Program-made: the position numbers and the translations under genes | Origin: Candidatus Binatia bacterium | GTDB lineage: Bacteria > Desulfobacterota > Binatia > DP-6 | Direction: 5' to 3' | NCBI GenBank assembly: GCA_041496545.1 | Contig: JBGQET010000007.1 | Span: 5,424 to 69,423, forward strand | DNA: 64,000 nucleotides | The notes under the pieces: model-generated | What the model saw: the letters and a program-made list of their open reading frames with translations, nothing else | Told to the model about the DNA's origin: nothing | The model's database searches: none | In this document: positions 11,791-28,442 of the stretch, in pieces | Numbering within the stretch: position 1 is the first letter of the stretch | How the letters are laid out: every line of letters starts with the position of its first letter

Positions 11791-12492
11791 TCAGCGGCGG
11801 CGCAGCGAGTCGATGTACGCCACCAGGTCCCAGAGCTGCGGCGGCTCGAGGGCGTCGGCGTACGACGGCATGGGCGTGCCGTCGAGGCCGGTCACCAGCG
11901 AGCGGTAGACGTCGGCGGGCGCGCCGCCGTTCTTGAAGCGGGTGGGGAGGCGGAGGTCGGCGGGCAGGATGCGGAGCCCCGTCTCGTCCTTGAGCTGCTT
12001 CGCCGAGCCGCCGTCGCCGCGGCCGCGGTCGCCGTGGCAGGACGGGCAGCCGGCGCTCTCGTAGAGGTCGCGGCCGCGCGACGCCGCCGCGGCGTCGAGC
12101 GGCGGCGCCTCGGGGAGGGCGATGGGCGTGGGCGTCGCGCTCGCGAAGCCGGGGTAGAAGCGCTTCACGGCGGTGATCGCGAGGCGGCGCTCGCCCGCCG
12201 TGAGCCCGATGAAGGACGGCATGTAGCCCGGGATGCCGCGCTCGAGGGTGCGCAGGATATCCGCGTCGGTCGGCAATTGCCCGCTCGGCGTCGAGCGGAG
12301 CTTGAAGCGGCCGCGGGTGAAGTCGCGCGGGCGCGGCGACAGGTACTTGTTGATCGAGAAGTACGCGGGCCCGTCGCCGCGCCCGTCCTTGCCGTGGCAC
12401 CACGCGCAGGCGTGGTTGTAGACGGCGGTCGCGTCGTCGGCCGCGACGGCCGGGGCGGCGAGCGCGAGGACGAGGAGGACGGCCGTTCGCAT
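11791..12492 (-). CDS. Di-heme cytochrome c
   Basis: It has a signal peptide and two CxxCH motifs (CAWCH, CPSCH). Confidence 0.8.
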   Translation of the reverse strand: MRTAVLLVLALAAPAVAADDATAVYNHACAWCHGKDGRGDGPAYFSINKYLSPRPRDFTRGRFKLRSTPSGQLPTDADILRTLERGIPGYMPSFIGLTAGERRLAITAVKRFYPGFASATPTPIALPEAPPLDAAAASRGRDLYESAGCPSCHGDRGRGDGGSAKQLKDETGLRILPADLRLPTRFKNGGAPADVYRSLVTGLDGTPMPSYADALEPPQLWDLVAYIDSLRRR

Positions 12493-12494
12493 CG

Positions 12495-14123
12495 TCAGAG
12501 CGCGAAGTCGAAGCCGAGGAAGAGACCGTTCCGCCAGTTGCCGAAGGGGTGGCTGCCGCCCGGCGTGAGGTTGACGCTGTCGCGCAGCGAGAGGCTCAGG
12601 AGGGCGGGGATCGGGACCCTAGCCAGATTGTCGCCCTCGAAGACGTACCAGCGCATCTGGAGGTGCAGCACCTGCGACTGCCGCGGGCCCGGCTCGAAGA
12701 CGACGTCGCTCTTGAAGCCGCCGGCGCTCATCCAGTCGTAGCGCACCGACGGCACGAGCGAGTGCGTGAGGCGGTAGTCCACCTCCGCGGTGAGCCCGTC
12801 GGCGCGTCGCTTGAAGCGCCCGGCGAGGCGCGACGGGACGTTGAAGACCTGGTCGTGCATGTAGGCGCCGTAGGTGTCCCACGGGCCGCGGCGCAGGTTC
12901 CAGCCGACGCCCTGGCGGGAGACATCGAGGTCGCGTTGGTTCGTGATCGTGCCGACGCCGAGCGGCGGTGGCGGGCGGTGCTGCGTGACGGGGCCGCCGA
13001 AGTCGCCGAGCGGGATCGACGGCAGCGGCGCCGGCGAGAGGTAGAACACGCGGTACGCCTCCCAGCCGTAGTTGCCGAGCACGGAGACCGAGCCGGTCAG
13101 GCCGTCGCGGTCGCCGAAGTCCCAGCGCAGCATGCCGTACGGCACGGCGGTGTGCAGCCCGTCGGTGAACTCGGGTGCCGCGCCGGTCGTCGTGCCGAGC
13201 TGGTAGAGGAGGTGGGAGGCGAAGAGGCGGCCGTGGAGGTCGAGGCCGGGCGCGGCCTCGGCGTGGTAGAGGGTCGGCTCGGTGGCGAGGAGCGTGTGGT
13301 CGCCGCGCTTGAAGATGCCGAAGAACTTGGCGCCGAAGGCGTAGGGGTTGAGCGGCATGCGGAGGAGGAAGCCGGACTCCGAGGTATCGGCCGGCACGTC
13401 GTGGAAGAGCTGGCGGTCGACGGCGTAGGAGAAGTTGGTCGAGGGGTCGATGCGACCGAACATGATCATGGGGCCGTGACCGACGAGGCCGTCGCCCATG
13501 GTCGCCATGCCGTGCCCGCCGTGGTCCATGTCTCCCATGTCGTGGCCCATCTGCTCGTGGTCCATGTGGGCCATGTCGTGTCCGCCGTGGCCGTGGAGGC
13601 CGAGCAGCATGGGGACGTCGACCATGACGAACGCCTTCTGCATGCCGCCCGTGTTGCTGTTCACGAAGTCGCCGCGCTTGTTGATGTCGGTCTCGTGGAC
13701 GGTGTGCTCGAGCTCGATGAAGAGGCTCGTCGAGGGCGTGAGCGGACCCGCGATGTAGACGCTCGTGTGCTCGGGGACGGCGAAGCCGCCCCGCGAGCCC
13801 GGCGCGTCGTCGAACTGCGAGCGCTCGAACCACTCGCCCCGCGTCCAGATCGCCATGCCCTTGGTGAGCGCGTCCTTCCACGTCGACGGGAACGGCGTCC
13901 ACATCGTGCCCGGCGGCTTGAAGCCGTTCATGTGGAACTCCTCGCCGTAGGCGTTGAGGCGCGGAACGGCGGAGTGGCAGACCCCGCAGGCGAGGTTGTA
14001 GCGACGGGCGAAGGCGGGTAGCGCCGCCGCCGAACGCGCCGTGACGAGGAGAGCGACAAGAGCGAGCAGGCGGCGCGCGAGCATCGGTCGCGCCCGTATA
14101 CCGGCCCGTGCCCCCGGGCTCAA
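12495..14123 (-). CDS. Secreted CxxCH-containing protein with a Met/His-rich copper-binding-like region and a beta-barrel-like C-terminus
   Basis: It has a signal peptide, a CGVCH motif and the tract HGHGGHDMAHMDHEQMGHDMGDMDHGGHGM. The C-terminus is rich in aromatic/Gly strands. Confidence 0.7.
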   Translation of the reverse strand: MSPGARAGIRARPMLARRLLALVALLVTARSAAALPAFARRYNLACGVCHSAVPRLNAYGEEFHMNGFKPPGTMWTPFPSTWKDALTKGMAIWTRGEWFERSQFDDAPGSRGGFAVPEHTSVYIAGPLTPSTSLFIELEHTVHETDINKRGDFVNSNTGGMQKAFVMVDVPMLLGLHGHGGHDMAHMDHEQMGHDMGDMDHGGHGMATMGDGLVGHGPMIMFGRIDPSTNFSYAVDRQLFHDVPADTSESGFLLRMPLNPYAFGAKFFGIFKRGDHTLLATEPTLYHAEAAPGLDLHGRLFASHLLYQLGTTTGAAPEFTDGLHTAVPYGMLRWDFGDRDGLTGSVSVLGNYGWEAYRVFYLSPAPLPSIPLGDFGGPVTQHRPPPPLGVGTITNQRDLDVSRQGVGWNLRRGPWDTYGAYMHDQVFNVPSRLAGRFKRRADGLTAEVDYRLTHSLVPSVRYDWMSAGGFKSDVVFEPGPRQSQVLHLQMRWYVFEGDNLARVPIPALLSLSLRDSVNLTPGGSHPFGNWRNGLFLGFDFAL

Positions 14124-14238: not shown

Positions 14239-14898
14239 GTGGAGGCGACCTTCTGCTTCGTCGATCTCGCCGGCTTCACGGCCCTGACGGAAGCGCACGG
14301 GGATCAGGCGGCGGCGGACCTCGCGCTCGCCTTCGGCAGGCTCGTCGAGCAGGCGCTCCAGGGAGCGGGCCAGGTCGTCGACACCGTCGGAGACGCCGTG
14401 TTCGTGGTGGCCGAGCGGCCGGCGGAAGCGGTGCGGTTCGTCGGCCGGCTCTTCGACCGAGCAGCGACGGAGCCCGATTTCCCCGCCCTCCGTGTCGGCC
14501 TGCACCACGGCGAGGCGGTGGTGCGGAACGACCGGTACTTCGGCACCTCGGTGAACCTTGCGGCACGCGTCGCGTCGCAGGCCGGCGGGGACGAGATCCT
14601 CGCCACCCGCGGGGTCGCGGAGGCGGCACGAGCGGTCGGGATCGACGCCACGTCCCGCGGCACCGTCGCGCTCCGGAACATCCTCGAGCCCGTCGAGCTC
14701 TTCGTCCTGGCGATCGGACGGTTCCCCGAAACCGTGATCGACCCGGTCTGCCGCATGCGCGTGGAGCGGAACGGGGCCGCCGGCCGCCTGCGCTTCCAGG
14801 GCACGGAGTACTTCTTCTGCTCGCTCGACTGCACGGCGCGCTTCGCCGCCCGCCCCGCGGCGTACGCGGCGGGCGAGGCGCCGGCCTCCAGGTCTTGA
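14239..14898 (+). CDS. Nucleotidyl cyclase (class III cyclase homology domain) fused to a C-terminal YHS/TRASH metal-binding domain
   Basis: The cyclase part reads FCFVDLAGFTALTE…TVGDAVFVV…GLHHGEAV…FGTSVNLAARV. The C-terminus reads DPVCRMRV…YFFCSLDC. The start is uncertain, and the GTG at 14239 is the best candidate. Confidence 0.65.
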   Translation: MEATFCFVDLAGFTALTEAHGDQAAADLALAFGRLVEQALQGAGQVVDTVGDAVFVVAERPAEAVRFVGRLFDRAATEPDFPALRVGLHHGEAVVRNDRYFGTSVNLAARVASQAGGDEILATRGVAEAARAVGIDATSRGTVALRNILEPVELFVLAIGRFPETVIDPVCRMRVERNGAAGRLRFQGTEYFFCSLDCTARFAARPAAYAAGEAPASRS

Positions 14899-14971: not shown

Positions 14972-15334
14972 ATGACGAGGAGAAAGATCAGGACGCTCGC
15001 GCTGGTCGCCGTGATGGCGACCGGCTTGGCCCTGCCCAACTTCCGGGCAGCCGTTGCCGATGAAATGAACATCGAGCAGCGAATCTCCACCGCGAAGACG
15101 GCCGCGGATCACGAAGCCATCGCCGCGTACTACGAGGAGCAGGCGAAGGCGGCGCGCGCGAAGGGCGAGGAGCACAAGCGGATGTCGGCCGATTACAGGA
15201 AGGCCGGCGGTTCCATGGCGAAGAGCCAGCTGCCCGAGCATTGCAACGGTCTGGCGGTGATCTACAGCGGTGCCGCGAAGCAGTACGACGCCCTCGCTGC
15301 GATGCATCGTAAGATGGCCAAAGCGGCGAAGTAG
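14972..15334 (+). CDS. Small secreted hypothetical protein
   Basis: An AAGGAGGGG RBS precedes the start, and a signal peptide is present (RTLALVAVMATGLALP). Confidence 0.55.
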   Translation: MTRRKIRTLALVAVMATGLALPNFRAAVADEMNIEQRISTAKTAADHEAIAAYYEEQAKAARAKGEEHKRMSADYRKAGGSMAKSQLPEHCNGLAVIYSGAAKQYDALAAMHRKMAKAAK

Positions 15335-15521: not shown

Positions 15522-15944
15522 ATGTCCGCGCTCACTCGGATGTTCCGCCGCTCGCGCACCTTGGTGGCGCTCCTCCTCGGCGTCTTGGTGCCGTACGTGT
15601 CGACTCGCTGCCTCCCCGGCTGCACGGTCGTGCACGGCGCCGCCGCGCATCATCATGCAGCGGTGACGCACGAGCGAGGCGGGGTGCATCGGCATGCGGC
15701 CCACGATGCCGAGCGTCCCGCGGATGCGGGGCATGACCACGACCAGCCGAGCTGCTGCCAAGTCACCGGAAAGCTCGCCGTCACGGTCCCGTCTCCCGCC
15801 GCAGGCATGGCGGGCCCGCTGCTGCGACCGGCCCTCCGGGTCGCGCCGACAGGACGTCTCTCAGCCGGCCGCACGCTCCCCCCGCCAGAATTCCTCGCGC
15901 ACGGTCCACCCGTCTACCTCCTCCACGCGACTCTCGTGATCTGA
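15522..15944 (+). CDS. His-rich exported protein upstream of the efflux operon, putative metal-binding
   Basis: It has a signal peptide and then AAHHHAAVTHERGGVHRHAAHDAERPADAGHDHD…CC. Confidence 0.5.
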   Translation: MSALTRMFRRSRTLVALLLGVLVPYVSTRCLPGCTVVHGAAAHHHAAVTHERGGVHRHAAHDAERPADAGHDHDQPSCCQVTGKLAVTVPSPAAGMAGPLLRPALRVAPTGRLSAGRTLPPPEFLAHGPPVYLLHATLVI

Positions 15945-16085: not shown

Positions 16086-17426
16086 ATGAGGGCCAGGAGA
16101 TCGGAGACACGCGAGGTGCCGGCGAGCCGGCTCCGCCCGCTCCACGTCGGCAAGCGGCCGGCGCTCGTCGTCTGTGCGCTCGCGTGCATGACCGCGAGCG
16201 CGACGCGCCTCGCGCGCGCGGAGGAGGGGCGCCCGACGCTCGCGTCGCTGCTCGAGACCGCGCGGGTCCAGAACGCCGAGATCCGGGCGGCGGAGGCGCG
16301 CTACCAGGCGATGCGCCAGCGTCCCGTCCAGGAGCGCACGCTGCCCGACCCGACCATCGGCGCCCGGTATCACAACGAGAAGACGGACCGCCTCACGCTC
16401 GGTGAGTCCGACTTCTCGTTCCTCGAGTTCTCCGCCGAGCAGGAGGTGCCGTTCCCCGGCAAGCTCGGGCTCCGCGGCGACGTCGCGGCGCGCGAGGCCG
16501 ATCGTGAACGGGCGATGCGTGACGAGACCGTCCTCATGGTCCTCGCCAAGGTCGCGGGCGGCTACGCCGACCTGGCGGCCGTGGACCGCACCAGGACCGC
16601 ACTCGAGCAGAGCGCCGCTACCCTCGACCTCATGGTGCGGCAGGCGGGCGAGAGCTACGGCGTCGGCACGGTGGCGCAGGCCGACGTCCTCCGCGCGACG
16701 CTCGAACGCGCCGCGATCGAGGAGCGGCTCACCATGCTCACCCAGAAGCGGGTCGCCGCCGAAGCGACGCTGAACGTGCTGCTGGCGCGCCCGGCGGCCG
16801 AGCGCGTCGGGCCCGTCGCGCTGCCGGCGACGGTGCCGCCCCTCGAGACGCTGGAGGCCTGGGGGCGGCGCGTTCAGGACGAGGCGCCCGCCGTGCGGGC
16901 GGCACGCGAGGACGTGCTCCGGGCCGGCGCCGCGCTGAAGCTCGCCGAGCGCGAGTACTTTCCCGACTTCGCGCTGATGGGCGGATACACCGATAAGAGT
17001 CGGCTCTTGCCGGAGTGGGAATTCGGCGTTCGCGTGCGTGTTCCGCTCTACTTCTGGCGGCGCCAGGGCCCGGCGGTCGCCGAAGCCGTCCACAACCGGA
17101 CGGCGGCCGAGGAGACGCGCCGGAACACCGCGCTCACGCTCGACGGCCGCCTCCGCGAGCTGCACGCCATGGCCGAGTCCGGGCAGCGGCTCGTCGCGCT
17201 CTACCGCGACACGCTCATCCCGCAGGCGTCGCTCACGCTCGAGTCGACGCGCGCCTCCTACGTAGTCGGCCGCGTCGATTTCCTGACCATGCTGACCGCG
17301 TTCACGAGCCTCCTCGAGTACCGCATTCGGTACGCGGAGACGATGGGGAGCCTCTACCGCGCCCGCGCCGAGATCGGGCCGCTCGTCGGCGAGAGCCCAC
17401 TCGACTGGTGGAAGGAGTCGCCGTGA
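16086..17426 (+). CDS. cusC: TolC-family outer-membrane efflux protein (CusC-like)
   Basis: It has outer-membrane factor coiled-coil repeats. Its stop overlaps the start of the next gene. Confidence 0.8.
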   Translation: MRARRSETREVPASRLRPLHVGKRPALVVCALACMTASATRLARAEEGRPTLASLLETARVQNAEIRAAEARYQAMRQRPVQERTLPDPTIGARYHNEKTDRLTLGESDFSFLEFSAEQEVPFPGKLGLRGDVAAREADRERAMRDETVLMVLAKVAGGYADLAAVDRTRTALEQSAATLDLMVRQAGESYGVGTVAQADVLRATLERAAIEERLTMLTQKRVAAEATLNVLLARPAAERVGPVALPATVPPLETLEAWGRRVQDEAPAVRAAREDVLRAGAALKLAEREYFPDFALMGGYTDKSRLLPEWEFGVRVRVPLYFWRRQGPAVAEAVHNRTAAEETRRNTALTLDGRLRELHAMAESGQRLVALYRDTLIPQASLTLESTRASYVVGRVDFLTMLTAFTSLLEYRIRYAETMGSLYRARAEIGPLVGESPLDWWKESP

Positions 17427-18544
17427 TGCGCACGCTCGCGACGGTGATTCTGGCCGGCGCCGTCACGTGCGCGGCCGCGGCGGAGATCCCGTCGCACGGG
17501 GCGCACGCGGCGCACGAGGGCGCGCAGGTGGCGGTCCCCGGGATGGCCGAGGTCGAGGTGCCCGTCGAGCGCCGGCAGGCGATCGGGGTGCGGACGGCGG
17601 AGGTTGCCCGGCGCACGCTCACGCAGGGCGTTCGCACCGTGGGTCTCGTCGCCGCGGACGAGCGCCGCGTGCGCCGCATCCAGACGAAGGTCTCCGGATG
17701 GGTCGACGAGCTGCTCGTCGCCTACACCGGCGCGCTCGTGAAGGCGGGCGAGCCCATCCTCTCGATCTACAGCCCGGAGCTGGTCGCCGCGCAGCGTGAG
17801 TATCTCCTCGCCCGCCGGGCGGGTGGAGCCGCCGGGGGCTCGAGCGGCCTGCTCGTGCAGTCGGCGCGGATGCGGCTCAGGAACTGGGACCTGACCGACG
17901 CGCAGATCGAGGCGCTCGGGAGGAGCGGGGAGCCGAGGCGCTCGGTCGTCCTCCACTCGCCCATCGCCGGCTACGTGACGCTCAAGCCGGTGACGCAGGG
18001 CATGTACGTGACGCCCGAGATGGAGCTCTACCGCATCACCGACCTCGACGCCGTCTGGATCTGGGCCGATCTCTACGAGAGCGAGATCGAGCTCGTGGCG
18101 ATCGGGCAGACGGCGGCGATCTCGCTCGCGTCGGCTCCCGGACGCACCTTCACCGCCGTGGTGGCGTACGTGAGCCCCACGATGGAGCCCGCCACCCGCA
18201 CGCTCCGCGTGCGCTTCGACATCGACAACCGTGGCCACCCCCTCAAGCCGGGCATGTACGCGACCGTCGTCCTCGAAGCGCCGCTCGGCGAGGTGCTCGC
18301 GCTCCCGGAAGAAGCCGTCATCGACACGGGCGAGCGTCGCGTGGTCTTCGTCGAGACGGCGCCGGGCCGCTTCCAGCCACGCGAGGTCGAGCTCGGCCGC
18401 ACGGGCGAGGGCCACTACGAGGTGCTCGGCGGCCTCGAGGCGGGCGAGCGGGTGGTGGTGAGCGCGCAGTTCCTGCTCGACTCCGAGAGCCGGCTCCGCG
18501 CCGCCGGCCGCGGCCCGGCGCACGCGGGGCACGGAGGCCAGTGA
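17426..18544 (+). CDS. cusB: RND efflux membrane fusion protein (CusB-like)
   Basis: It has the periplasmic adaptor architecture (beta-barrel and lipoyl-like regions). Confidence 0.8.
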   Translation: MRTLATVILAGAVTCAAAAEIPSHGAHAAHEGAQVAVPGMAEVEVPVERRQAIGVRTAEVARRTLTQGVRTVGLVAADERRVRRIQTKVSGWVDELLVAYTGALVKAGEPILSIYSPELVAAQREYLLARRAGGAAGGSSGLLVQSARMRLRNWDLTDAQIEALGRSGEPRRSVVLHSPIAGYVTLKPVTQGMYVTPEMELYRITDLDAVWIWADLYESEIELVAIGQTAAISLASAPGRTFTAVVAYVSPTMEPATRTLRVRFDIDNRGHPLKPGMYATVVLEAPLGEVLALPEEAVIDTGERRVVFVETAPGRFQPREVELGRTGEGHYEVLGGLEAGERVVVSAQFLLDSESRLRAAGRGPAHAGHGGQ

Positions 18545-18548
18545 GGCG

Positions 18549-21500
18549 ATGGAACGGCTGATCGAGTTCTGCGGCCGCCGGCGCGCGCTCGTCTTCCTGG
18601 CGACGGGCCTCTTCGTAGCGTGGGGCGTCTGGGCCATTCGGCGGACGCCCGTCGACGCCCTGCCCGACCTCTCCGACACGCAGGTCATCGTCTTCACCGA
18701 GTGGATGGGCCGCAGCCCGAACCTCGTCGAGGACCAGATCACTTACCCGATCGTCACCACCTTCCTCGCCGCGCCCCACGTGAAGGTCGTCCGCGGCTTC
18801 ACGATGTTCGGCATGTCCTTCGTCTACATCGTCTTCGAGGACGGGACGGACATCTACTGGGCGCGGAGCCGAACGCTCGAGTACCTCGTGAAGCTCCAGG
18901 GACGCCTCCCGCCCGGCGTCACGCCCCAGATCGGGCCCGATGCGACCGGCCTCGGCTGGGTCTTCGAGTACGCGCTGGTCGACGACACCGGCCAGCACGA
19001 CCTCCAGCAGCTCCGGAGCTTCCAGGACTGGTACCTCCGGTACTGGCTCTCCTCCGTCCCGGGCGTCGCCGAGGTCGCCGGCGTCGGCGGGTACGAGAAG
19101 GAATACCAGATCGAGCTCGACCCGGTGCGGCTCCAGGCCTTCAACGTGTCGATCGGCGACATCGTGCAGGCCGTGCGGATGTCGAACGGCGACGTCGGCG
19201 GGCGGGTGATCGAGCTGGCGGAGCACGAGTACGCCGTGCGCGGCCGCGGCTACATCCAGTCCCGCGACGACCTGGCGAGCATCGCGGTCACGACGAACGC
19301 GGCCGGCACGCCGGTCCGGCTCGGCGACCTGGCGCGGATCCAGGTCGGCGGGGCGATCCGCCGCGGTTTCGCCGAGCTGGACGGACTCGGCGAGACGGTG
19401 GGCGGGATCGTCGTCATGCGCTTCGGCGAGAACGCGCTCGACGTGATCGAGCGGGTGAAGGCGAAGCTCGAGGAGATGAAGGCCGCCTTCCCGCCGGGCG
19501 TCCGGATCGTCACCACGTACGACCGCTCGGATCTCATCCGCGCCTCGGTGGCGACGCTCCGCGACAACCTCGTGCAGGTCATGGTCGTCGTGTGTCTCAC
19601 CGTCGTCGTCTTCCTCTTCCACGTGCGCTCCGCGCTCGTCCCGGCGATCACGCTGCCGGTCGCCGTCGTCCTCTCGTTCATCCCGATGGCCTACATGGGC
19701 CTCACCACCAACATCATGTCGCTGGCGGGGATCATCATCGCGGTCGGCGACATGGTCGACGCGGCCGTCGTGCTGGTGGAGAACGCCCACAAACGCCTCG
19801 AGCACGCGGGCCCCGACGCCGACCGCACGGCGGTCGTGATCGGCGCCGCCAAGGAGCTCGGCCCGCCGATCTTCGGGTCGCTCCTCGTCATCACGATTGC
19901 CTTCCTCCCGGTCTTCACGCTCCAGGCGCAGGAGGGCCGGCTCTTCAAGCCGCTCGCGTACACGAAGACCTTCTCGATGGCGTTCGCCTCCGTGCTCTCG
20001 GTGACGCTCGTCCCCGCGCTCATGGTGACCTTCGTGCGCGGCCGCATCCGCCCGGAGCGGGAGAACCCCGTGAACCGGGCCGTCATGGCCGCCTATCGGC
20101 CCGTGCTGCGCTTCTGCCTCGAGCGGCGGCGGCTCCTGATCGCGGCCGTCGTGCTCGCGCTCGGCGTCACGGTGGTGCCGTTCTTTCGGCTGGGCTCGGA
20201 GTTCATGCCGCCGCTCTACGAGGGTTCGCTTCTGTTCATGCCGATCACCGTCCCGGGCATCTCGATCGAGGAGGCGAAGCGCCTCGTCCAGGAGCAGGAC
20301 CGCCGGCTGAAGGAGTTCCCGGAGGTGGAGACGGTCTTCGGCAAGGCAGGCCGCGCCGAGACGCCGACCGACCCGGCGCCGCTCTCGATGATCGAGACCG
20401 TGGTGGCGTTGAAGCCGCGCACGGCGTGGCGGCCGGGCATGACGTGGGAGCGGCTCGTCCGCGAGATGGACGCCGCCGTCGCCATGCCGGGGCTCCAGGC
20501 GGCGTGGACGATGCCGATCAAGGCGCGGGTCGACATGCTGACGACCGGCATCCGCACGCCCGTCGGCGTCAAGGTCTTCGGCCCCGACCTCGAGGAGATC
20601 GCCCGCGTCGGCGAGTCGCTCGAGAACATCCTGCGCGACGTGCCCGGCACGCGATCGGTGTACGCGGAGCGGGAGCTCGGCGGCTTCTTCATCGACTTCG
20701 TCCCGGACCGGGCCGCGATCGCGCGCTACGGGCTTCGCCTGATGGACGTCATGAACGTCGTCGAGACGGCGATCGGAGGGCTCGACATCGACACCACCAT
20801 CGAGGGCCGCGAGCGCTACCGGGTGAATGTCCGCTACCCGCGCGAGCTGCGCGACACGCCCGAGGAGCTGGCGCGCGTGCTCGTGCCCATTCCCGCGCAG
20901 TCGGGCGGGCTCGGGCCCGCGAACGAAGGTCCCATGGACGGGACGCCGCGTCCCGGCGCCGACGCCATGAGCGGGGGACGCGTCGCGCACGTCCGCCTCG
21001 GGCAGCTCGGCCGGATCACCGCCGCCATGGGCCCCCCGATGATCAAGGACGAGGGCGGGTCGCTCACCGGCTGGGTCTACGTGGACACGTCGCGCAGCGA
21101 CCTCGGCGGCTACGTCGCGGAGGCGAAGCGCGCCGTCGCGCGTGAGCTCCGGCTGAAGCCCGGCTACTACCTCCGCTGGACGGGCACCTACGAGTTCCTC
21201 GAGCGGATGCAGGCGCGGATGCGGATCGTGATCCCGCTCACGGTGGGGATCATCCTGGCGATCCTCTTCGTGAACTTCGGCGGGCTCGCGCAGGCGCTGC
21301 TCGTGCTGTTCTCGGTGCCCTGCGCGGCGATGGGCTCGATCTGGCTCCTGTGGCTCCTTGGCTTCAATACGTCGGTGGCCGTGTGGGTCGGCATGATCGC
21401 GCTCCTCGGCGTTGCGGCCGAGACCGCCTCGATCATGGTGATCTACCTCGACGAGGGCTACGCGCGCTGGCAGGCCGACGGCCGCATCCACACCACGCGC

Positions 21501-21752
21501 GACCTGATCGAGATGGCGATGGAGTCCGCGGTGCTCCGCGTCCGTCCGCTCCTCATGACCGTCGCGATGAACATCTTCGGGCTCATCCCGGTCATGTTCG
21601 ACACCGGCATCGGCTCCGACGTCGCGAAGCGGATCGCCGCGCCGCTCTGGGGTGGCCTCGTCTCGCTCACGCTGCTGACGCTCGCCGTGATCCCGGCCCT
21701 GTACGTGATTTGGCGCGAGCGGCAGCTCCGCCACGCGGAGGCACGGCCGTGA
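18549..21752 (+). CDS. cusA: Heavy-metal efflux RND transporter, CusA/CzcA family
   Basis: It is 1067 aa. The N-terminal 400 aa are collinear with and very similar to E. coli CusA (…PVDALPDLSD.QVI…GPDATG.GW.FEYALVD…). Confidence 0.9.
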   Translation: MERLIEFCGRRRALVFLATGLFVAWGVWAIRRTPVDALPDLSDTQVIVFTEWMGRSPNLVEDQITYPIVTTFLAAPHVKVVRGFTMFGMSFVYIVFEDGTDIYWARSRTLEYLVKLQGRLPPGVTPQIGPDATGLGWVFEYALVDDTGQHDLQQLRSFQDWYLRYWLSSVPGVAEVAGVGGYEKEYQIELDPVRLQAFNVSIGDIVQAVRMSNGDVGGRVIELAEHEYAVRGRGYIQSRDDLASIAVTTNAAGTPVRLGDLARIQVGGAIRRGFAELDGLGETVGGIVVMRFGENALDVIERVKAKLEEMKAAFPPGVRIVTTYDRSDLIRASVATLRDNLVQVMVVVCLTVVVFLFHVRSALVPAITLPVAVVLSFIPMAYMGLTTNIMSLAGIIIAVGDMVDAAVVLVENAHKRLEHAGPDADRTAVVIGAAKELGPPIFGSLLVITIAFLPVFTLQAQEGRLFKPLAYTKTFSMAFASVLSVTLVPALMVTFVRGRIRPERENPVNRAVMAAYRPVLRFCLERRRLLIAAVVLALGVTVVPFFRLGSEFMPPLYEGSLLFMPITVPGISIEEAKRLVQEQDRRLKEFPEVETVFGKAGRAETPTDPAPLSMIETVVALKPRTAWRPGMTWERLVREMDAAVAMPGLQAAWTMPIKARVDMLTTGIRTPVGVKVFGPDLEEIARVGESLENILRDVPGTRSVYAERELGGFFIDFVPDRAAIARYGLRLMDVMNVVETAIGGLDIDTTIEGRERYRVNVRYPRELRDTPEELARVLVPIPAQSGGLGPANEGPMDGTPRPGADAMSGGRVAHVRLGQLGRITAAMGPPMIKDEGGSLTGWVYVDTSRSDLGGYVAEAKRAVARELRLKPGYYLRWTGTYEFLERMQARMRIVIPLTVGIILAILFVNFGGLAQALLVLFSVPCAAMGSIWLLWLLGFNTSVAVWVGMIALLGVAAETASIMVIYLDEGYARWQADGRIHTTRDLIEMAMESAVLRVRPLLMTVAMNIFGLIPVMFDTGIGSDVAKRIAAPLWGGLVSLTLLTLAVIPALYVIWRERQLRHAEARP

Positions 21753-24484
21753 CGACCGACACGCGCTGGCACGCGAAGGTCCCCGCCGACATCGCGCGCG
21801 AGCTTGGCACCGACCTCGTGCGCGGTCTCGACCCGGCGGAAGCGGCGGGCCGCCTCGCGCGCGACGGCCGCAACGAGCTCGAGCGCGGCGAGGCCGCCTC
21901 GCCGTGGTCGAGCTTCGTGGGGCAGTTCAAGAGCCTCGTCATCTGGGTCCTCATCGGGGCGGCCGTCATCTCGGGGCTGCTCGGTGAAGCCGTCGACGCG
22001 GGGGCGATCCTCGCCATCGTGGTGCTGAACGCGCTCATCGGCTTCGCCCAAGAGTACCGCGCCGAGCGCGCCGTCGCCGCGCTCGCGCGGCTGGCGGCGC
22101 CGCGGGCGCGCGTGCTTCGGGGCGGGCACGCGGCCGTCGTTCCCGCCGCCGAGATCGTGCGCGGCGACGTCCTCGTCCTCGACGCTGGCGATCTCGTGGG
22201 CGCGGATGCACGCCTCTTCGACGCCTCGGCGCTTCGCACGACGGAGGCGCCGCTCACCGGTGAGTCCGAGCCGGTGGACAAGCAGACCACTCCATGCCCT
22301 CCCGGGACCGCGCTCGCCGATCGGCGGAACATGGTCTTCCTCGGCACGAGCGTGGCGGGCGGCTCCGGCCGTGCGGTGGTGGTGGCGACGGGGATGGCGA
22401 CCGAAGTCGGACGCATCGCCTCGCTGCTCGAGACCGCGTCGAGCGGGGAGACGCCGCTCCAGCGCAAGCTCGACCAGGTCGGCCGGCGCCTGCTGTGGGC
22501 CTGCCTCGGCATCGTCGTGGTCGTCTTCCTGCTGGGGGCGCTGCGCGGCATCGCCCTCGGGGAGATGTTTCTCGGCGCGGTGAGCCTCGCCGTGGCCGCC
22601 ATCCCCGAGGGCCTGCCTGCCGTGGTGACGATCGCGCTCGCCGTCGGCGTGTCACGCATGGCCCGTCGCAACGCGCTCGTCCGCCGGCTGCCGTCGGTCG
22701 AGACGCTCGGCTGCGCGCAGGTGATCTGCACGGACAAGACGGGGACCCTGACCGTGGGCGAGATGACCGTCCGGCGGATCGTGACGGCCGAGCGGGTGGT
22801 CGCGGTCACGGGGGAGGGCTACGCGACCGAGGGGGGTTTCTTCCAGGACGGTGTCGCGATCGACCCGACCGGCGCGGCCGTGACGCGCGCGCTCCTGGAG
22901 GCCGCCGCAGCGTGTAACGATGCGGAGCTCGTGCGGCGCGACGGCCGCGTCGGCATCGTCGGCGACCCGACCGAGGCCGCGCTCCTGGTCGCGGCGGCGA
23001 AGGCCGGCATTGGCCGCGACAGCATCGAGACGGCGATGCCGAGGTTGGGCTCGATCCCCTTCGACTCCGACCGGAAGCGGATGACGGTGATCCGTCGCCG
23101 GGACGGCGTGCCGTGGGCGTTCGTCAAGGGCGCGCCCGAGGTGCTCCTCGAGCGCTGCACCGCCGTGCGGACGGAGCAGGGCGCGGAATCGTTGCGCGAG
23201 GTGGACCGGGCGCGCATGACCGAGGCGGCGGCGCTCATGGCGAACGAGGCCCTCCGCGTCCTCGCGCTTGCCGAGCGGCGGCTTCCCGGCGAGCCTCGTG
23301 CGGGCGCCGCCGACGAGGTTGAGCGCGACCTGGTCCTCCTCGGCCTGGTCGGTCTGCAGGACCCGCCGCGTGCCGAGGCGCTCGAGGCCGTCCGGAAGTG
23401 CAAGCGCGCGGGCATCCGCACGGTGATGATCACCGGCGACCATCCCGAGACCGCCCGCGCCATCGCACGCGAGCTCGAGATCCTGGAGCGCGGCGACGAG
23501 GCGATCGTCGGCCACGAGCTCGATGAGCTGTCGGACGCGCAGCTCGCCGAGCGCGTCGGTCGCGCTTCGGTGTACGCGCGCGTGACGGCCGAGCACAAGC
23601 TGCGGATCGTGCGTGCATGGAAGGCGAAGGGTGCCGTGGTCGCGATGACGGGCGACGGCGTGAACGACGCGCCGGCGCTGAAGGAGGCCTCGATCGGGAT
23701 CGCCATGGGCATCGCGGGCACCGAGGTCACCAAGGAAGCCGCGGACATGGTGATCACGGACGACAACTTCGCCTCGATCGTCGCCGCCGTCGAGGAGGGC
23801 CGCGGCATCTACGACAACATCGCCAAGACGCTCGCCTACCTGCTCGCCGGGAATGCCGGCGAGCTGCTCGTCACCCTGCTGGCCGTGCTCGTCGGCTGGC
23901 CGTTCCCGCTCCTCCCCATCCAGCTTCTCTGGATCAACCTCGTGACGGACGGCCTGCCGGCGCTCGCTCTCGCGACGGACCCGATCGACCCCGAGGTGCT
24001 GTCCCGGCCGCCACGGCGTCCCGAGGCGCAGCTCATGGACCGGCGCTTCCTCGGGCGGCTCGCCCTCACCGGGATTCTCACCGCCGCCGTCGCACTCGTC
24101 GGCTTCGCCTACGAGTATCGCATCGACCGCAACGTGATGGACGCGAGGAATGCGGCCTTCTCGGTGCTGGTGATCGCGGAGCTCCTGCGCTCCTTCGGCG
24201 CCCGGAGCGAGACCCGGACGGTCTGGGAGCTGGGGCTGCTGTCGAACGCGCGCCTCTTCGCCATCGTGGCCGTGAGCTTCGGCCTGCAGCTGACGATTCA
24301 CCACACGCCCGGGCTCGAAGTCGTGTTCGGGACGGAGCCGATCTCGCTCGGGCAGTGCGTCGCCTGGATCGCGCTCGGCGCGGTGCCGTCGATCCTGCTC
24401 GAGGGAATGAAGATCGTGGGCGCGCGCGGCTGGATCGACCCGGGCGCCGCGACAGCGCTCGGCGGCCGCCAGGGGGCGCGATGA
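21749..24484 (+). CDS. P2-type (SERCA/PMCA-like) cation-transporting P-type ATPase
   Basis: It has ICTDKTGTLT, the PEGLPAVVTIALAVG helix-4 motif (not CPC), TGDGVNDAPAL and MITGD. The GTG start overlaps the cusA stop. Confidence 0.85.
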   Translation: MTTDTRWHAKVPADIARELGTDLVRGLDPAEAAGRLARDGRNELERGEAASPWSSFVGQFKSLVIWVLIGAAVISGLLGEAVDAGAILAIVVLNALIGFAQEYRAERAVAALARLAAPRARVLRGGHAAVVPAAEIVRGDVLVLDAGDLVGADARLFDASALRTTEAPLTGESEPVDKQTTPCPPGTALADRRNMVFLGTSVAGGSGRAVVVATGMATEVGRIASLLETASSGETPLQRKLDQVGRRLLWACLGIVVVVFLLGALRGIALGEMFLGAVSLAVAAIPEGLPAVVTIALAVGVSRMARRNALVRRLPSVETLGCAQVICTDKTGTLTVGEMTVRRIVTAERVVAVTGEGYATEGGFFQDGVAIDPTGAAVTRALLEAAAACNDAELVRRDGRVGIVGDPTEAALLVAAAKAGIGRDSIETAMPRLGSIPFDSDRKRMTVIRRRDGVPWAFVKGAPEVLLERCTAVRTEQGAESLREVDRARMTEAAALMANEALRVLALAERRLPGEPRAGAADEVERDLVLLGLVGLQDPPRAEALEAVRKCKRAGIRTVMITGDHPETARAIARELEILERGDEAIVGHELDELSDAQLAERVGRASVYARVTAEHKLRIVRAWKAKGAVVAMTGDGVNDAPALKEASIGIAMGIAGTEVTKEAADMVITDDNFASIVAAVEEGRGIYDNIAKTLAYLLAGNAGELLVTLLAVLVGWPFPLLPIQLLWINLVTDGLPALALATDPIDPEVLSRPPRRPEAQLMDRRFLGRLALTGILTAAVALVGFAYEYRIDRNVMDARNAAFSVLVIAELLRSFGARSETRTVWELGLLSNARLFAIVAVSFGLQLTIHHTPGLEVVFGTEPISLGQCVAWIALGAVPSILLEGMKIVGARGWIDPGAATALGGRQGAR

Positions 24485-25581
24485 CCACCGACCCCGCGTC
24501 CGAGCCCGCGAGGCGGCCGGCCGGTGCGCTCGGCGCACGCCTCGCCCTCGCGCTGGGCGGCGGCGCCGCGCGGGGCCTCGCCCACATCGGCGTGCTCGAG
24601 GTGCTCGAGCGCGAAGGCATTCGCCCCGACTGCATCGTCGGGAGCAGCATCGGCGGTCTGATCGGAGCGCTCAGCGCGAGCGGCCTGCGCTCGGGGGAGA
24701 TCCGGCGGCTGGCGCGAGGCTTCCACTTCCCGCGCTGGTTCGTTCCCGGGGCCGCGGTGCGGTGGGAGTCCGTCTTCGCCCCTGCGGTCCCGATCCTCTC
24801 CGGCCTGTCGTTCGAGGAGCTGGTGACGCCGCTGGTGGTCACGGCCGTCGACCTCGAGGCCGGCACCCAGGTAATTCTCCGCGCGGGGTCCCTGCTTCCC
24901 GCGGTGCGGGCGACTTGTGCGGTGCCCGGCGTGCTCCCGCCCGAGAAGATCGGGAGCCGCTGGCTCGTGGACGGGGGGCTGGTGAACATTCTGCCCGTGG
25001 ACGTCGCGTGGCTGGTCGAGCCGGACGTGGTGATCGCCGTCAAGGTCGGTGCCACGCGCGCTCGCCATGTCCCCCAGCTCGGCTGGCGCCTCACCGGTCT
25101 CCTCTCGTGGCTGGGTAGCGTGGTGCCGAACCCGGCCACCGCGAAGGTGTCGTTCGAGGTTCTCGTCCGCGCCGCGGAGATCGTCCTCGATCGGCAGACC
25201 GCGCTCGCCACCGCGATGACCGGTCCCGAGGTCCTCGTCGAGCCGGAGCTGCACGACATCGGGCTGCGCGACTTCGATCGGCTCGACGACGCCGTCAAGG
25301 CAGGGCGCCGCGCCGCCGACGAAGTCTTGCCGGAGCTCCTCCGACTGCTCGAAGCACCGCCCAGCTCGGCCGTGCGCAGCCAGCTCGTGTTGACGCTCCG
25401 TTTCGACCCGGTGTGCGCCATGGTGGTCAGCCCCCCTCGTGCCCGCGCGCGGGCGGAGCACGCCGGTACGACGTACTACTTTTGCTCGGCGAATTGCCGC
25501 GATTGCTTCGAGCGCGACCCGGAACGGTTCCTCACCGGCAAGGCGCTCGCGTTTCTCACCAGCCGGGGGGCGCCGCAGTGA
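24481..25581 (+). CDS. Patatin-like phospholipase fused to a C-terminal YHS/TRASH domain
   Basis: It has the GGGAARG oxyanion motif, GSSIGG nucleophile and a DGG motif. The C-terminus reads DPVCAMVV…YYFCSANC. The ATG start overlaps the ATPase stop. Confidence 0.85.
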   Translation: MTTDPASEPARRPAGALGARLALALGGGAARGLAHIGVLEVLEREGIRPDCIVGSSIGGLIGALSASGLRSGEIRRLARGFHFPRWFVPGAAVRWESVFAPAVPILSGLSFEELVTPLVVTAVDLEAGTQVILRAGSLLPAVRATCAVPGVLPPEKIGSRWLVDGGLVNILPVDVAWLVEPDVVIAVKVGATRARHVPQLGWRLTGLLSWLGSVVPNPATAKVSFEVLVRAAEIVLDRQTALATAMTGPEVLVEPELHDIGLRDFDRLDDAVKAGRRAADEVLPELLRLLEAPPSSAVRSQLVLTLRFDPVCAMVVSPPRARARAEHAGTTYYFCSANCRDCFERDPERFLTGKALAFLTSRGAPQ

Positions 25582-25964
25582 CGGGCCATGGGCGAACAGG
25601 CGACGCCGATCTCCGAAGCGGCCGCCGGCCGCGGCTCCCGCGTCATGGCGGGGGTGCAGCGGCACCACGTGACGCTCGGCGCGTTCCCGCCGTCGGCGAC
25701 GGGATTGAGCTTCCGATTCAGTGTGGGCATCCCGACTGCGAATGCCGCGACGCGTGCTGCCGAGTACGCCGGACGACTCGTCGCTGCGTTCCCAGCCTTG
25801 AAGGCTGGGACGGCGTTTCGTCTCATACTTGAGAACGTCGGGGCGGGGGTCCCGCCATGCAGGTGCGTGCCGGGCGGCGGTCCAATTGCAGAAGCACCGA
25901 GGTGGGCCCCTGGCTTTCGAGGATACCCGTGCACGACCGAGGACCAGAACAACCTGCCTCCCGC

Positions 25965-26726
25965 ATGCGATTCAAGGTCGGCGTCATGGGAGGCGCCACC
26001 GGCGTAGCGTCGCGAGAGATACTCGAGAAAGCTCACGCGCTCGGACGCGCGATCGCCAAGACCGGCTGCGTCCTCGTCACCGGCGGATGTCCGGGCCTCC
26101 CGCTCGCCGCCGCCTGCGGGGCGAAGGAGGAGGGAGGCTTCGTGGTCGGCATCTCACCCGGGCTGAGCCTCGACGAGCACGTCTACAAGTACGGCTCTCC
26201 AACCGACTTCCATGACGTCCTGATCTTCACGGGCAGCGGGCTCATGGGACGGGAGGTCGTCAACATCCGCAGCTCCGACATCGTGGTGATCATCGGCGGG
26301 CGCAGCGGCACGCTCGGCGAGCTTGCCATCTCCTACGACGAGGGGAAGCTGATCGGCGTGCTGACCGGCACCGGCGGGATCAGCGACATGGTCGCCGACA
26401 TCCTCGCCGCGTGCGCCAAGGACACCGGCGCGCGGGTCGTCTACGACGCGGATCCGGAGCGCCTGGTCGACCGGCTTCTGCGCCTCTACCGCTCGGAGCA
26501 CCGGCGAAAGCCGTCGTGCTTCTGCGCGGAACGCCGGCCGGACGAGGGAGAGCCCGCCACCCGCGTGTTCCGCGACCCGGTGTGCGGGATGCCGCTCGTC
26601 GCGACCTCCGCGGCCGCGGAGCGTACGGCCGGCGGGGAGCGCCATCTTTTCTGCTCGGTGGCATGTGCCAATCGGTTCGATGCGAATCCGGGTGCCTACA
26701 CCGACGCGAGGGAGCGCCATGCCTGA
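25965..26726 (+). CDS. LOG/TIGR00725-family Rossmann nucleotide-binding protein fused to a C-terminal YHS/TRASH domain
   Basis: It has the GGxGTxxE motif ([12 protein letters not shown]). The C-terminus reads DPVCGMPL…HLFCSVAC. Confidence 0.75.
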
Positions 26727-26899
26727 TCGCACGCTCCACTTCCTCGGCGGCGCAGGTACGGTCACCGGGTCGAAGCATCTCGTCACGGTGGGAGGCCGTC
26801 GGATCCTGCTCGACTGCGGCCTGTTCCAAGGGGCTCAAGGAGCTCCGGCTACTCAACTGGCAAGCGCCTCCATTCGAGCCGCACGCGATCGACGGATGA
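26719..26899 (+). pseudogene. MBL-fold (beta-CASP RNase-like) metallo-hydrolase, N-terminal remnant that is frameshifted and truncated
   Basis: [38 protein letters not shown] reads correctly, then the homology shifts frame ([21 protein letters not shown]) and stops before the HxHxDH motif. Confidence 0.65.
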
Positions 26900-26996
26900 C
26901 AAGCACCCGGCGGGCCACCCGGGAGGGCTCTATTCGATGAAAGGCCGATGCAACGAGCCGCGCGGCCAAAAGCGCGGCGGCAGGAGGAACACGACG

Positions 26997-27407
26997 ATGA
27001 CGCAGAGGAGCTTCACAGTCTGGACGATAGTTGCGCTCGGCATCCTGGGCACGGCGCTGGCGCGAGCCGGGAACGTTTCCGCACCTCCGTCCGGCTACAC
27101 CGGTAAGCTCGACGACCGGCAGATGATCTGCATGACGCAGGACACGGTCCAAGCCAAGCCTGGCCTCGCAGAGGAGTACAAGGGCAAGCGCTACTACCTC
27201 TGCTGCGAGGGGTGCCGCGCCGCCTTCGAGGCGAGCCCGGACCGCTACGCGCGCGCGACCGACCCCGTGAACGGCCAGCAGGTGGACAAGGCCGACGCCC
27301 CAGTCTACGCGTACGGCGGGCGGGCCTACTACTTCAGCTCGGCGGAGACACAGGCGGCGTTCGCGCGGGAGCCGGGGCGCTATCTGAAGGGCTCGCCGGC
27401 GCCGTGA
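26997..27407 (+). CDS. Secreted protein with two tandem YHS/TRASH-like domains
   Basis: It has a signal peptide, then KRYYLCCEGCRAAFEASPDRY and DPVNGQQV…GRAYYFSSAETQAAFAREPGRY. The second domain lacks the Cys residues. Confidence 0.65.
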   Translation: MTQRSFTVWTIVALGILGTALARAGNVSAPPSGYTGKLDDRQMICMTQDTVQAKPGLAEEYKGKRYYLCCEGCRAAFEASPDRYARATDPVNGQQVDKADAPVYAYGGRAYYFSSAETQAAFAREPGRYLKGSPAP

Positions 27408-27425: not shown

Positions 27426-28442
27426 ATGGACACCGAGCGAGCCCGAGCCGTGATGCCGGCGGTGCGCGCAATCCTCGCGGGCCTCCTCCTGCTGGCGACC
27501 GCCCGCGCGCGTGGCGCCGAGCCGAGACCCCTCGACGTGGGCACTGGCGAACATTTGGTCGTCGTGGCTCCGCACCCCGATGACGAGACGCTCGGCGCCG
27601 GCGGCCTGATCCAGCGGGTGCTCGAGCGCGGTGGCGCGGTTCGCGTCGTGCTCGTGACGGCCGGCGACGGGTACGTCGAGGCCGTCGTGCACGAGACGGG
27701 TCGGCCCCGGCCGCGTCCAGCCGACTACATCGCATACGGCGAACGCCGGCTTCGCGAGGCGCGTCGGGCCCTTCGCGAGCTCGGCGGCGACGCCATCCGC
27801 GCGGAGCATCTGCTCGGCTTCCCGGACGGCGGTCTGGATTCGCTCTTGACCGCGCACTGGCAGCGGATGTCCCCCGAGCGCTCCGCGACCACCGACGCTT
27901 CCCGGCCGCCCTACCCGGAGGCGGAGCATCCCGAGGCGCACTACGACGGCGACGATCTGCGCGCCGCGCTTCTCCGGTGCTCCCGCGAGATCCGTCCGAC
28001 GCTGATCGCGTTCCCCGACCCGGCCGACCGCCATCCGGATCATCACGCCGCGGGACTCTTCACGCTCCTCGCCGTGGACGACATGGCGCGCGCCAAGGAG
28101 ACACTGCCCCGCCTCGTCGCTTACCTCGTTCACTGGCCGCACTGGCCGCCGGGCTGGGACGCCGCGGCGCCGTCGCCCGACGTCACGGCAGCGCCGCTCG
28201 AGCTGCCGCGGACGCTTCCCGCACGGGGACTCGCGCGCGCCGTTCTCACTCTAAGCGACGGGGAGGTCGTCGCGAAGGGCGCCGCTCTCGCTCGGTACGC
28301 GAGCCAGCAGCGGGAGGTCAGGCCGCTGTTGGCGGCGTTCGTGCGTCGCACGGAGCCGTTCACGGTCTTCACACTTGCGGAGCTGCGGCGGATCGAGGAG
28401 ATGACCGCGCGTTGCGGCCGACCGCGTTCGCGCGATAGGTAG
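27426..28442 (+). CDS. PIG-L/LmbE-family N-acetylglucosaminyl deacetylase
   Basis: It has the VVAPHPDDETLGAGG motif and a possible signal peptide. Confidence 0.75.
   Translation: MDTERARAVMPAVRAILAGLLLLATARARGAEPRPLDVGTGEHLVVVAPHPDDETLGAGGLIQRVLERGGAVRVVLVTAGDGYVEAVVHETGRPRPRPADYIAYGERRLREARRALRELGGDAIRAEHLLGFPDGGLDSLLTAHWQRMSPERSATTDASRPPYPEAEHPEAHYDGDDLRAALLRCSREIRPTLIAFPDPADRHPDHHAAGLFTLLAVDDMARAKETLPRLVAYLVHWPHWPPGWDAAAPSPDVTAAPLELPRTLPARGLARAVLTLSDGEVVAKGAALARYASQQREVRPLLAAFVRRTEPFTVFTLAELRRIEEMTARCGRPRSRDR

Follow-up and report, generated by a model that had tools for sequence, protein, structure and literature searches.

A 64,000-nucleotide stretch of DNA from a Candidatus Binatia bacterium (contig JBGQET010000007.1 of assembly GCA_041496545.1, positions 5,424 to 69,423, forward strand), referred to here in its entirety as the window, carries three genes in which a YHS domain is fused to the C-terminus of a cytoplasmic enzyme. 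The enzymes are a patatin-like acyl hydrolase, a protein of SLOG cluster 4 and a class III cyclase, and they occur in an island that also encodes a Cus-type efflux pump. The best explanation for this arrangement, held with moderate confidence, is that the three form a copper-gated set of enzymes working in parallel. In support of that reading stand the domain architectures, catalytic and ligand residues that are intact, the identity of the pump, the translational coupling of patatin-YHS to it, a gene order shared across phyla and the repeated occurrence of YHS fusions. By analogy with the cyclase-YHS of Mycobacterium phlei, copper (or silver) would be the ligand, and its binding would change enzyme activity. 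Membrane phospholipid as the substrate of the patatin, and nucleoside monophosphates released by the 5'-3' ribonuclease or pterin as that of the SLOG protein, are speculative suggestions.

The island has the gene order copC-copD-cusF ... cyclase-YHS ... cusC-cusB-cusA-P2A ATPase-patatin-YHS, followed by SLOG-YHS, a remnant of a beta-CASP ribonuclease (RNase) gene, a tandem-YHS gene and a PIG-L gene (Table 1), and the remaining genes of the window are ordinary chromosomal housekeeping genes. Real genes were separated from the numerous spurious open reading frames (ORFs) by means of third-position GC. The region is most likely a chromosomal copper/silver-resistance island of an uncultured, high-GC bacterium, the overall G+C of the window being ~72%. 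The patatin-YHS protein, with the same surrounding gene order, is also present on contig JBGPWT010000025.1 (GCA_041492335.1), a metagenome-assembled genome (MAG) contig at NCBI.

YHS domains were called with Pfam model PF04945 at its gathering score of 30.3 bits. The initial annotation, made from the sequence alone, had placed the domain in the patatin, LOG-type and secreted genes and in a fourth, cyclase-bearing gene upstream, and the Pfam scores bear it out in every case: 42.5 bits in the patatin protein, 33.7 bits in the SLOG protein (residues 204-247), 41.2 bits in the cyclase (residues 179-224, in the numbering of a 232-aa query) and a score well above the cut-off in the secreted protein. 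The ligand set of one Asp and three Cys is complete in all three cytoplasmic proteins, with the secreted tandem protein as the exception. A six-frame motif scan of the window for DPVCxM...FCSxxC found no further copy outside the four YHS genes.

In the patatin protein, the Patatin domain (PF01734) spans residues 23-177 (89.7 bits; cut-off 27.7). It has a GGGAARG oxyanion hole, a G-S-S56-I-G nucleophile motif and D164-G-G, while the YHS ligands are D309, C312, C335 and C339. D164 and the YHS residues D309, C312, M314, C335 and C339 do not vary across 120 homologues, and S56 is kept in at least 90% of them. The AlphaFold2 (AF2) model has a predicted local distance difference test score (pLDDT) of 85.8 and a predicted template modelling score (pTM) of 0.85. 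The best solved match is PlpD of P. aeruginosa at 32% identity, with CapV and CapE next at ~20%. Membership in the RssA equivalog family (NF007623) was ruled out at 115 bits versus 272. A database search with patatin-YHS returned 889 hits, and the best 120 clusters (90% identity) are 57-100% identical to the query, 119 of them with both Pfam domains. The databases name them only in general terms ('NTE family protein', 'patatin-like phospholipase' and the like), and in literature searches no paper was found that combines patatin with YHS or relevantly ties patatin to cusA.

The pump encoded upstream of patatin-YHS had been identified as CusCBA, and correctly so: it is a true system of the Cu(I)/Ag(I) type. 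Its resistance-nodulation-division (RND) subunit finds its best solved match in E. coli CusA (PDB 3t51), is well above the TIGR00914 cut-off and is accompanied by CusB- and OEP-type partners. In an alignment with 3t51, whose solved chain has seven extra residues, Met573, Met623 and Met672, the three-methionine site of CusA, are kept as LFMPIT, LSMIET and RVDML. Classes of motif in transmembrane helix 4 (TM4) of RND pumps were reportedly described by Nies in 2003. The TM4 motif of the window CusA is AVGDMVDAAVVLVEN, which has the CusA-like form AVG...DAA...VEN and rules out a divalent-cation pump of the CzcA type. The motif DFG...DGA of divalent-cation pumps was present in none of 13 linked RND pumps; in the pumps linked to patatin-YHS, the CusA-type A[IV]G...DAA...EN was found in six cases and SIG...DGA...VEN in four. 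No CusRS regulator was seen among the window ORFs scanned.

The P-type ATPase gene that follows cusA had been placed with cusCBA in a copper-efflux operon, but its product is not a copper pump. The protein scores best against Ca-type P2A models (PMR1-type, 700 bits; SERCA-type, 655 bits), and a P1B copper ATPase was ruled out at 235.7 bits versus 346 for TIGR01525. An orthologue with 51% identity occurs at locus L100 (5544-8201), between RND components and SLOG-YHS.

The cusA stop overlaps the ATPase start as GTGA (21749-21752), and the ATPase stop overlaps the patatin start as ATGA (24481-24484), so cusCBA, the ATPase and patatin-YHS constitute one translationally coupled unit. Such coupling had been proposed for the downstream genes as well, where it does not extend: SLOG-YHS begins after a gap of 383 nt from patatin-YHS, and the tandem-YHS gene after a gap of 270 nt from SLOG-YHS. 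At L088 a 267-aa gene stands in the place of the 383-nt gap, and tblastn detected no remnant of it in the window. The gap contains a perfect inverted repeat of 10 bp followed by a T-rich tail, which was found by a repeat search; a simple terminator scan gave no call there. Judged from the sequence, this hairpin may, tentatively, be a terminator that ends the cus-ATPase-patatin transcript. In the window as a whole, no Rfam family was matched, and sigma-70 promoter and terminator patterns did not exceed shuffled expectation.

The link between patatin-YHS and Cus-like pumps recurs well beyond the window. Among species-representative genomes, full-length patatin-YHS was found at 16 loci, all of them in MAGs and none in a cultured isolate. 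The labels of these MAGs include Gemmatimonadales, Binatia, 'Deltaproteobacteria'/Myxococcales, Syntrophaceae, Gammaproteobacteria and Burkholderiales, among others. Synteny was compared by tblastn of the window proteins against fetched loci, using 17 loci (the window included) with at least 8 kb of context each. In 11 of the 17, a Cus-like set of outer-membrane (OEP), membrane fusion (MFP) and RND components lies within 10 kb of patatin-YHS, as a rule on its strand and immediately before or after it. These Cus-linked loci belong to MAGs of Gemmatimonadota, Myxococcota/'Deltaproteobacteria', and Gamma- and Betaproteobacteria. The RND protein is 43-55% identical to that of the window in ten; the set at L170, where patatin-YHS also adjoins a multicopper oxidase, was identified by Pfam.

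The precedent for metal gating comes from the cyclase. The window cyclase (Guanylate_cyc, residues 15-160 of the 232-aa query, 43.6 bits) keeps two metal-binding Asp residues, the Asn and the Arg, while the base-specifying Lys/Asp pair is replaced by Asp/Arg and the six-residue canonical set is incomplete; the positions were assigned from the class III motif. In a census of 108 cyclase-YHS homologues, the pair was D/R in 48 and K/D in 38, and neither K/R nor D/D occurred. Since the pair is charge-swapped and covarying, the product is possibly not cAMP. The search itself gave 3220 hits. Most of the 120 listed are 213-236 aa long, and more than 100 of those listed (211-268 aa) nearly all have both domains. 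With a single class III domain, a short linker, a C-terminal YHS and a size within 216-473 aa, the protein has the architecture described for adenylate cyclase-YHS (AC-YHS) proteins by Linder (2015; PMC4626032). In that work, a 233-aa cyclase-YHS of M. phlei was stimulated approximately six-fold by 1-10 uM Cu2+ in the presence of Mn2+, and with Mg2+ copper turned the inactive enzyme active. The isolated catalytic domain showed no copper response, so the YHS domain is required, and one Asp and three Cys were proposed as its ligands (PMC4626032).

It follows that the three fusions, all regarded as undescribed in the initial annotation, differ in standing: cyclase-YHS is published, and patatin-YHS and SLOG-YHS are new only in the sense of being unstudied. 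The latter two are common in metagenomes, with hundreds to thousands of clusters, and are catalogued under generic names.

The SLOG protein had been labelled 'LOG/TIGR00725', and only the second part of the label stands. PF18306 (LDcluster4) matches residues 3-167 at 153.6 bits (cut-off 26.3), and the NCBIfam model TIGR00725 gives 86 bits, below its cut-off of 106.9; on these scores, the protein is placed in PF18306/TIGR00725 at family level only. A cytokinin-activating LOG (NF058542) was ruled out at 33.4 bits versus 300, the GGRSGTLGE motif having one extra residue relative to PGGxGTxxE. The linker before the YHS domain contains an extra invariant C185-F-C187. Of the YHS ligands, C207 and C230 never vary among 120 homologues, and D204 and C234 are kept in at least 90% of them. 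The AF2 model has a pLDDT of 85.2. A search returned 4881 hits, and the best 120 are all at least 70% identical, 118 with both domains; they are named 'YHS domain-containing protein' or 'TIGR00725 family'. Literature searches on LDcluster4 and TIGR00725 found nothing.

By both profile and fold, the nearest solved relatives of the SLOG domain are carriers of the molybdenum cofactor (Moco) and a related protein: TM1055, RoMCP (6y01; E 3e-14) and the Chlamydomonas Moco carrier protein (MCP; 2iz5; E 1.5e-12). The target-normalised TM-score against the MCPs and TM1055 is 0.85-0.88 at 28-30% identity, and cytokinin LOGs are far weaker at E ~1e-5. RoMCP binds Moco and passes it to apo-nitrate reductase (PMC7470044). 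Accordingly, one could propose that SLOG-YHS is a Moco or molybdopterin carrier and not a nucleotide-processing protein, with a YHS domain that shields the dithiolene cofactor from copper or strips copper from it, and a Mo-enzyme gene does occur near the related island at L169. This proposal is considered distinctly improbable. An identity of 28-30% is insufficient to fix a ligand, no Moco biosynthesis genes were seen adjoining SLOG-YHS, and the most conserved neighbour is an overlapping beta-CASP RNase gene, which suggests RNA or nucleotide chemistry.

In the window, that neighbour survives only as the start of a TTHA0252-type gene, with a +1 frameshift near 26830 and an end that precedes the HxHxDH motif. 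The remnant is 72-82% identical by tblastn to residues 6-60 of intact 465-aa genes in L086 and L088, which overlap SLOG-YHS by the same 8 nt as in the window. With an intact overlapping gene elsewhere and a remnant here, the window SLOG-YHS has lost its usual RNase partner, whose intact form matches the Thermus RNase TTHA0252 (PDB 2dkf) at E 3e-85. Synteny was sampled at 33 metagenome loci of at least 5 kb each, where a beta-CASP RNase gene is immediately 3' of SLOG in 12 and nearby in five more. Heavy-metal RND pumps (seven loci), P-type ATPases (ten) and multicopper oxidases (two) also occur near SLOG, and about half of the 33 loci have one of the three beside SLOG(-YHS). At L095, for example, the order is cusCBA, SLOG-YHS, beta-CASP, DUF2231, a YHS-HMBD P1B ATPase, a cation diffusion facilitator (CDF) transporter and LOG. 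No description of this SLOG/beta-CASP pairing in metal islands was found in the literature.

The YHS domain appears to be a module that is acquired repeatedly. Among the 33 SLOG loci, it is C-terminal in 12, N-terminal in several (four of these confirmed by Pfam; Table 1) and absent from about half. Glycogen phosphorylase and P1B ATPases of related islands carry it as well, at their N-terminus. Judged by their arrangement, the fusions to SLOG (at either end), glycogen phosphorylase and P1B ATPases look like independent events. Repetition of this kind, in either orientation, is a classic sign that a module and the proteins bearing it are functionally connected.

A rather unlikely alternative is that YHS is a structural or docking zinc ribbon, with constitutive Zn, that serves in dimerisation or in tethering to P-type ATPases and metallochaperones, the copper context being a result of island co-transfer. 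The related TRASH fold is structural in ribosomal L24e, and the YHS of toluene-4-monooxygenase, for which no regulatory role is known, is free of metal in the crystal structure (PMC4626032). In the patatin-YHS model, the YHS part also has weak matches to a phenol hydroxylase subunit (ranks 39-40). These points weigh against copper gating, as do several features of the neighbourhoods. No metal gene lies within 10 kb in six of the 17 patatin-YHS loci or in about half of the SLOG loci, and some YHS neighbourhoods are concerned instead with carbohydrate or reserve metabolism (GH65, glucose-6-phosphate dehydrogenase [G6PD], GH57, phosphorylase). In addition, about half of the SLOG/beta-CASP pairs have no YHS, which implies that the domain is dispensable for the core function of the pair. 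A purely structural role is, however, difficult to reconcile with the metal-specific activation of the M. phlei enzyme and with the repeated recruitment of YHS, at either terminus, to unrelated enzymes in metal islands. Met and Cys side chains are typical ligands of soft metals, and patatin-YHS has an invariant Met314 beside Cys312, while the linker of SLOG-YHS has the extra invariant CFC.

Cys-rich Zn sites often act as redox switches, and YHS might likewise respond through oxidation of its three Cys and release of Zn, in which case it would serve a general response to oxidation or starvation and not one to copper. Some neighbourhoods would suit this, having universal stress protein (Usp), G6PD/6-phosphogluconate dehydrogenase (6PGD), glycogen enzyme and cytochrome genes in place of metal pumps. 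The genes' link to pumps of the Cus type, multicopper oxidase and P1B ATPases, which is strong and specific, argues otherwise, as does the copper-specific M. phlei precedent, and a thiol switch is regarded as very unlikely.

Under the preferred reading, that of copper gating, a class III cyclase, a patatin with a serine-Asp acyl hydrolase site and a SLOG cluster-4 protein would each sense metal in cis through an Asp-Cys3 YHS domain. Once efflux is saturated, each YHS would bind cytoplasmic Cu(I), or possibly Ag(I), and switch its own enzyme domain on or off post-translationally, probably via oligomerisation or domain docking. Oligomerisation is perhaps the switch; cyclases, patatins of the CapV type and MCP/LOG proteins all form oligomers. 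During copper stress, the patatin protein, which is translated together with the Cus pump, would act on membrane lipid by hydrolysis or remodelling. The ligand of SLOG-YHS would be a nucleotide or a pterin, on which it would normally act together with the overlapping TTHA0252-type RNase that has decayed in the window. The secreted tandem-YHS protein may be a periplasmic metal-binding accessory.

The YHS enzymes are proposed to operate in parallel, with no cascade, because their genes mostly occur separately. SLOG-YHS co-occurs with patatin-YHS in only four of the 16 genome loci. The window cyclase matched those 16 loci through its YHS part only, and the same was true of the patatin in the 33 SLOG loci. 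Exceptions to this separation are the window itself, L088 and L169, the last with cyclase-YHS divergently adjacent to patatin-YHS. The initial annotation had envisaged a metal-gated module with the cyclase, LOG and patatin in series and, conceivably, a damage-response or toxin-like logic. Gating is supported by the M. phlei precedent; the series and the toxin logic are not upheld. Such a cascade would resemble CBASS or Pycsar, with a signal from the copper-activated cyclase that is processed or sensed by SLOG and unleashes a membrane-destroying patatin. Consistent with it are the presence of all three genes in the window, the divergent pair at L169, the non-canonical base-specifying pair of the cyclase and the structural relationship of patatin-YHS to the ligand-gated effectors CapV and CapE. 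Patatin-YHS is nevertheless closer to PlpD/RssA than to CapV, and a CBASS CapV-type lipase (NF041079) was ruled out at 20.7 bits versus 200. Known defence systems (PADLOC; NCBIfam CBASS and Pycsar models) gave marginal partial matches only, with none of the proteins reaching a defence-system model; the PADLOC phospholipase-effector matches to patatin-YHS are at most 26 bits and confined to the N-terminal 55 residues. No CD-NTase domain was present in any window ORF scanned. Moreover, a sensor on each protein would be superfluous in a serial pathway, and the genes are located inside protective efflux operons. On the results for co-occurrence and family membership, the cascade is rated lowest of all the explanations.

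Copper tolerance is usually accounted for by pumps, oxidases, chaperones and transcriptional sensors. If the copper reading is correct, patatin-YHS would add an enzymatic, membrane-lipid arm to this response, and the YHS switch would be extended from a single biochemical example, the mycobacterial cyclase, to unrelated folds. The SLOG/beta-CASP pair in metal islands provides a starting point for working out what the orphan TIGR00725/MCP-like family does. A broader and more doubtful proposal is that YHS is a portable post-translational copper switch that has been plugged onto a phospholipase, a SLOG/RNase pair, glycogen phosphorylase, a cyclase of altered base specificity and pumps across many uncultured phyla. 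Were this so, no transcription factor would be needed for cytoplasmic copper to reprogramme, directly, the metabolism of lipids, RNA or nucleotides, glycogen and second messengers, and the patatin linked to Cus would be the first bacterial phospholipase gated by copper. Should the metal prove to be structural zinc, the finding shrinks to a common, generically annotated architecture.

The remaining members of the island are listed in Table 1. The secreted gene had been described as a double-YHS protein; two YHS stretches are indeed present, and neither has the full set of one Asp and three Cys. Module 1 keeps three Cys and has no Asp, and module 2 has no Cys at all (DPVNGQ...YYFSSAE). The family, of 130-160 aa, is widespread, with dozens of 50%-identity representatives and additional versions of three to nine repeats. 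The PIG-L/LmbE deacetylase encoded next to it is a conserved member of the module: it is 72% identical to the PIG-L beside SLOG-YHS in the Binatia MAG locus L087 (9457-10458) and is present in L090 too. Upstream, the CopC (77.8 bits), CopD (72.6 bits) and CusF-like (CusF_Ec, 67.9 bits) genes lie 5-8 kb from the Cus pump, and between the cop genes and cyclase-YHS are the genes for a His/Met-rich protein and a c-type cytochrome. The helical secreted family of ~120 aa has several paralogues per island in L087, L088, L130, L138 and L149 and is possibly a periplasmic accessory of metal islands.

Further features were noticed in related islands. A Cys-rich protein of ~470 aa recurs in such islands and is absent here. 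Genes for glycogen phosphorylase with an N-terminal YHS repeatedly stand immediately upstream of SLOG genes, and L088 has GH57, CBM48 and NTP-transferase genes nearby, an arrangement that may connect YHS islands with glucan reserves.

Table 1. Coordinates of island features in the window and, in the last three rows, of features at related loci (numbered within each locus).
Feature	Position	Strand	Remarks
Periplasmic copper genes	10288-11789	+	CopC ~10310-10693, CopD to 11514, CusF-like 11511-11789
Two-domain c-type cytochrome	11791-12492	-	Adjoins 542-aa secreted protein
Secreted protein	12495-14123	-	542 aa; His/Met-rich tract (HGHGGHDMAHMDHEQMGHDMGDMDHGGHGM); no Pfam match
Class III cyclase with C-terminal YHS	14239-14898	+	219 aa
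Secreted helical protein	14972-15334	+	~120 aa; AKTAADHEAIAAYYEEQAK...EHC...; no Pfam match
Small His-rich protein	15522-15944	+	Weak DUF2946 match; immediately 5' of cusC
CusC-like outer-membrane factor	16086-17426	+	Pfam OEP, 115 bits
CusB-like membrane fusion protein	17453-18544	+	Pfam HlyD_D23, 249 bits; CusB hairpin domain; start inferred at MRTLATV
CusA-type heavy-metal RND pump	18549-21752	+	TIGR00914, 1072 bits (cut-off 701)
P2A-type (Ca/Mn-type) P-type ATPase	21749-24484	+	Cation_ATPase_N/C domains; PEGLP motif
Patatin-like acyl hydrolase with C-terminal YHS	24481-25581	+	366 aa; no signal peptide
YHS module of patatin protein	25405-25539	+	Residues 309-353
Perfect 10-bp inverted repeat	25790-25810	+	TCCCAGCCTT/AAGGCTGGGA, then T-rich tail GTTTCGTCTC; between patatin-YHS and SLOG-YHS
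SLOG cluster-4 (TIGR00725-like) protein with C-terminal YHS	25965-26726	+	253 aa
Pseudogene remnant, TTHA0252-type metallo-beta-lactamase (MBL)/beta-CASP ribonuclease	26719-26899	+	First ~60 codons; ATG overlaps SLOG-YHS stop by 8 nt
Secreted tandem-YHS protein	26997-27407	+	136 aa; N-terminal signal-like segment (MTQRSFTVWTIVALGILGTALARA); Pfam YHS, 65.9 bits over two stretches
PIG-L/LmbE-family deacetylase	27426-28442	+	Pfam PF02585, 96.9 bits; hydrophobic, signal-like N-terminus; 18 nt after tandem-YHS gene
N-terminal YHS-SLOG cluster-4 proteins	L130 7412-8152; L135 1596-2504; L149 9857-10585; L155 9965-10738		Pfam-confirmed
Glycogen phosphorylase with N-terminal YHS	L087 2185-4032; also L124, L143, L146, L167		Immediately upstream of SLOG genes
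Cys-rich conserved protein	L087 4351-5766; L088 6231-7649; L090 3742-5112		~470 aa; CACADR..., CTCGHPCPP; no Pfam match

Several known systems resemble parts of the island. E. coli CusCFBA shares with the window the order cusC, cusB, cusA, a three-methionine CusA and a CusF-like gene nearby. The window operon differs in that it runs on into the P2A ATPase and patatin-YHS, and its cusF lies 5 kb off. P1B copper ATPases and subunits of toluene/phenol monooxygenases have a YHS/TRASH domain of the same Pfam family and ligand motif at their N-terminus, whereas the YHS domains of the island are on soluble enzymes and mostly C-terminal, and the window P2A ATPase has none.

For the patatin, the best structural and NCBIfam matches, PlpD (PDB 5fya) and RssA, have the same Ser-Asp dyad and glycine-rich oxyanion loop. 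In contrast to patatin-YHS, PlpD is a secreted type Vd passenger with POTRA and beta-barrel domains, and RssA has no metal domain. CapV and CapE, in which a small ligand gates a patatin fold through oligomerisation, are a conceptual precedent for a gated bacterial patatin; no CD-NTase partner of patatin-YHS was seen, and its proposed ligand is a metal on an added domain. The SLOG domain has the GG-x2-GT-x2-E loop in common with the MCPs (2iz5, 6y01) and TM1055, which, unlike SLOG-YHS, have neither a YHS domain nor an RNase partner. RNase TTHA0252 of Thermus thermophilus is a close homologue of the usual SLOG(-YHS) partner, of which the window retains a frameshifted 60-codon stump only.

The closest counterpart of the window cyclase is the class IIIc cyclase-YHS of M. 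phlei, a protein of similar size with a catalytic domain, a short linker and a C-terminal YHS with one Asp and three Cys. In the window cyclase, however, the canonical Lys/Asp pair is replaced by Asp/Arg, and the mycobacterial gene is not reported to lie in a Cus island. Patatin-YHS and SLOG-YHS, for their part, combine the same kind of domain with unrelated catalytic folds.

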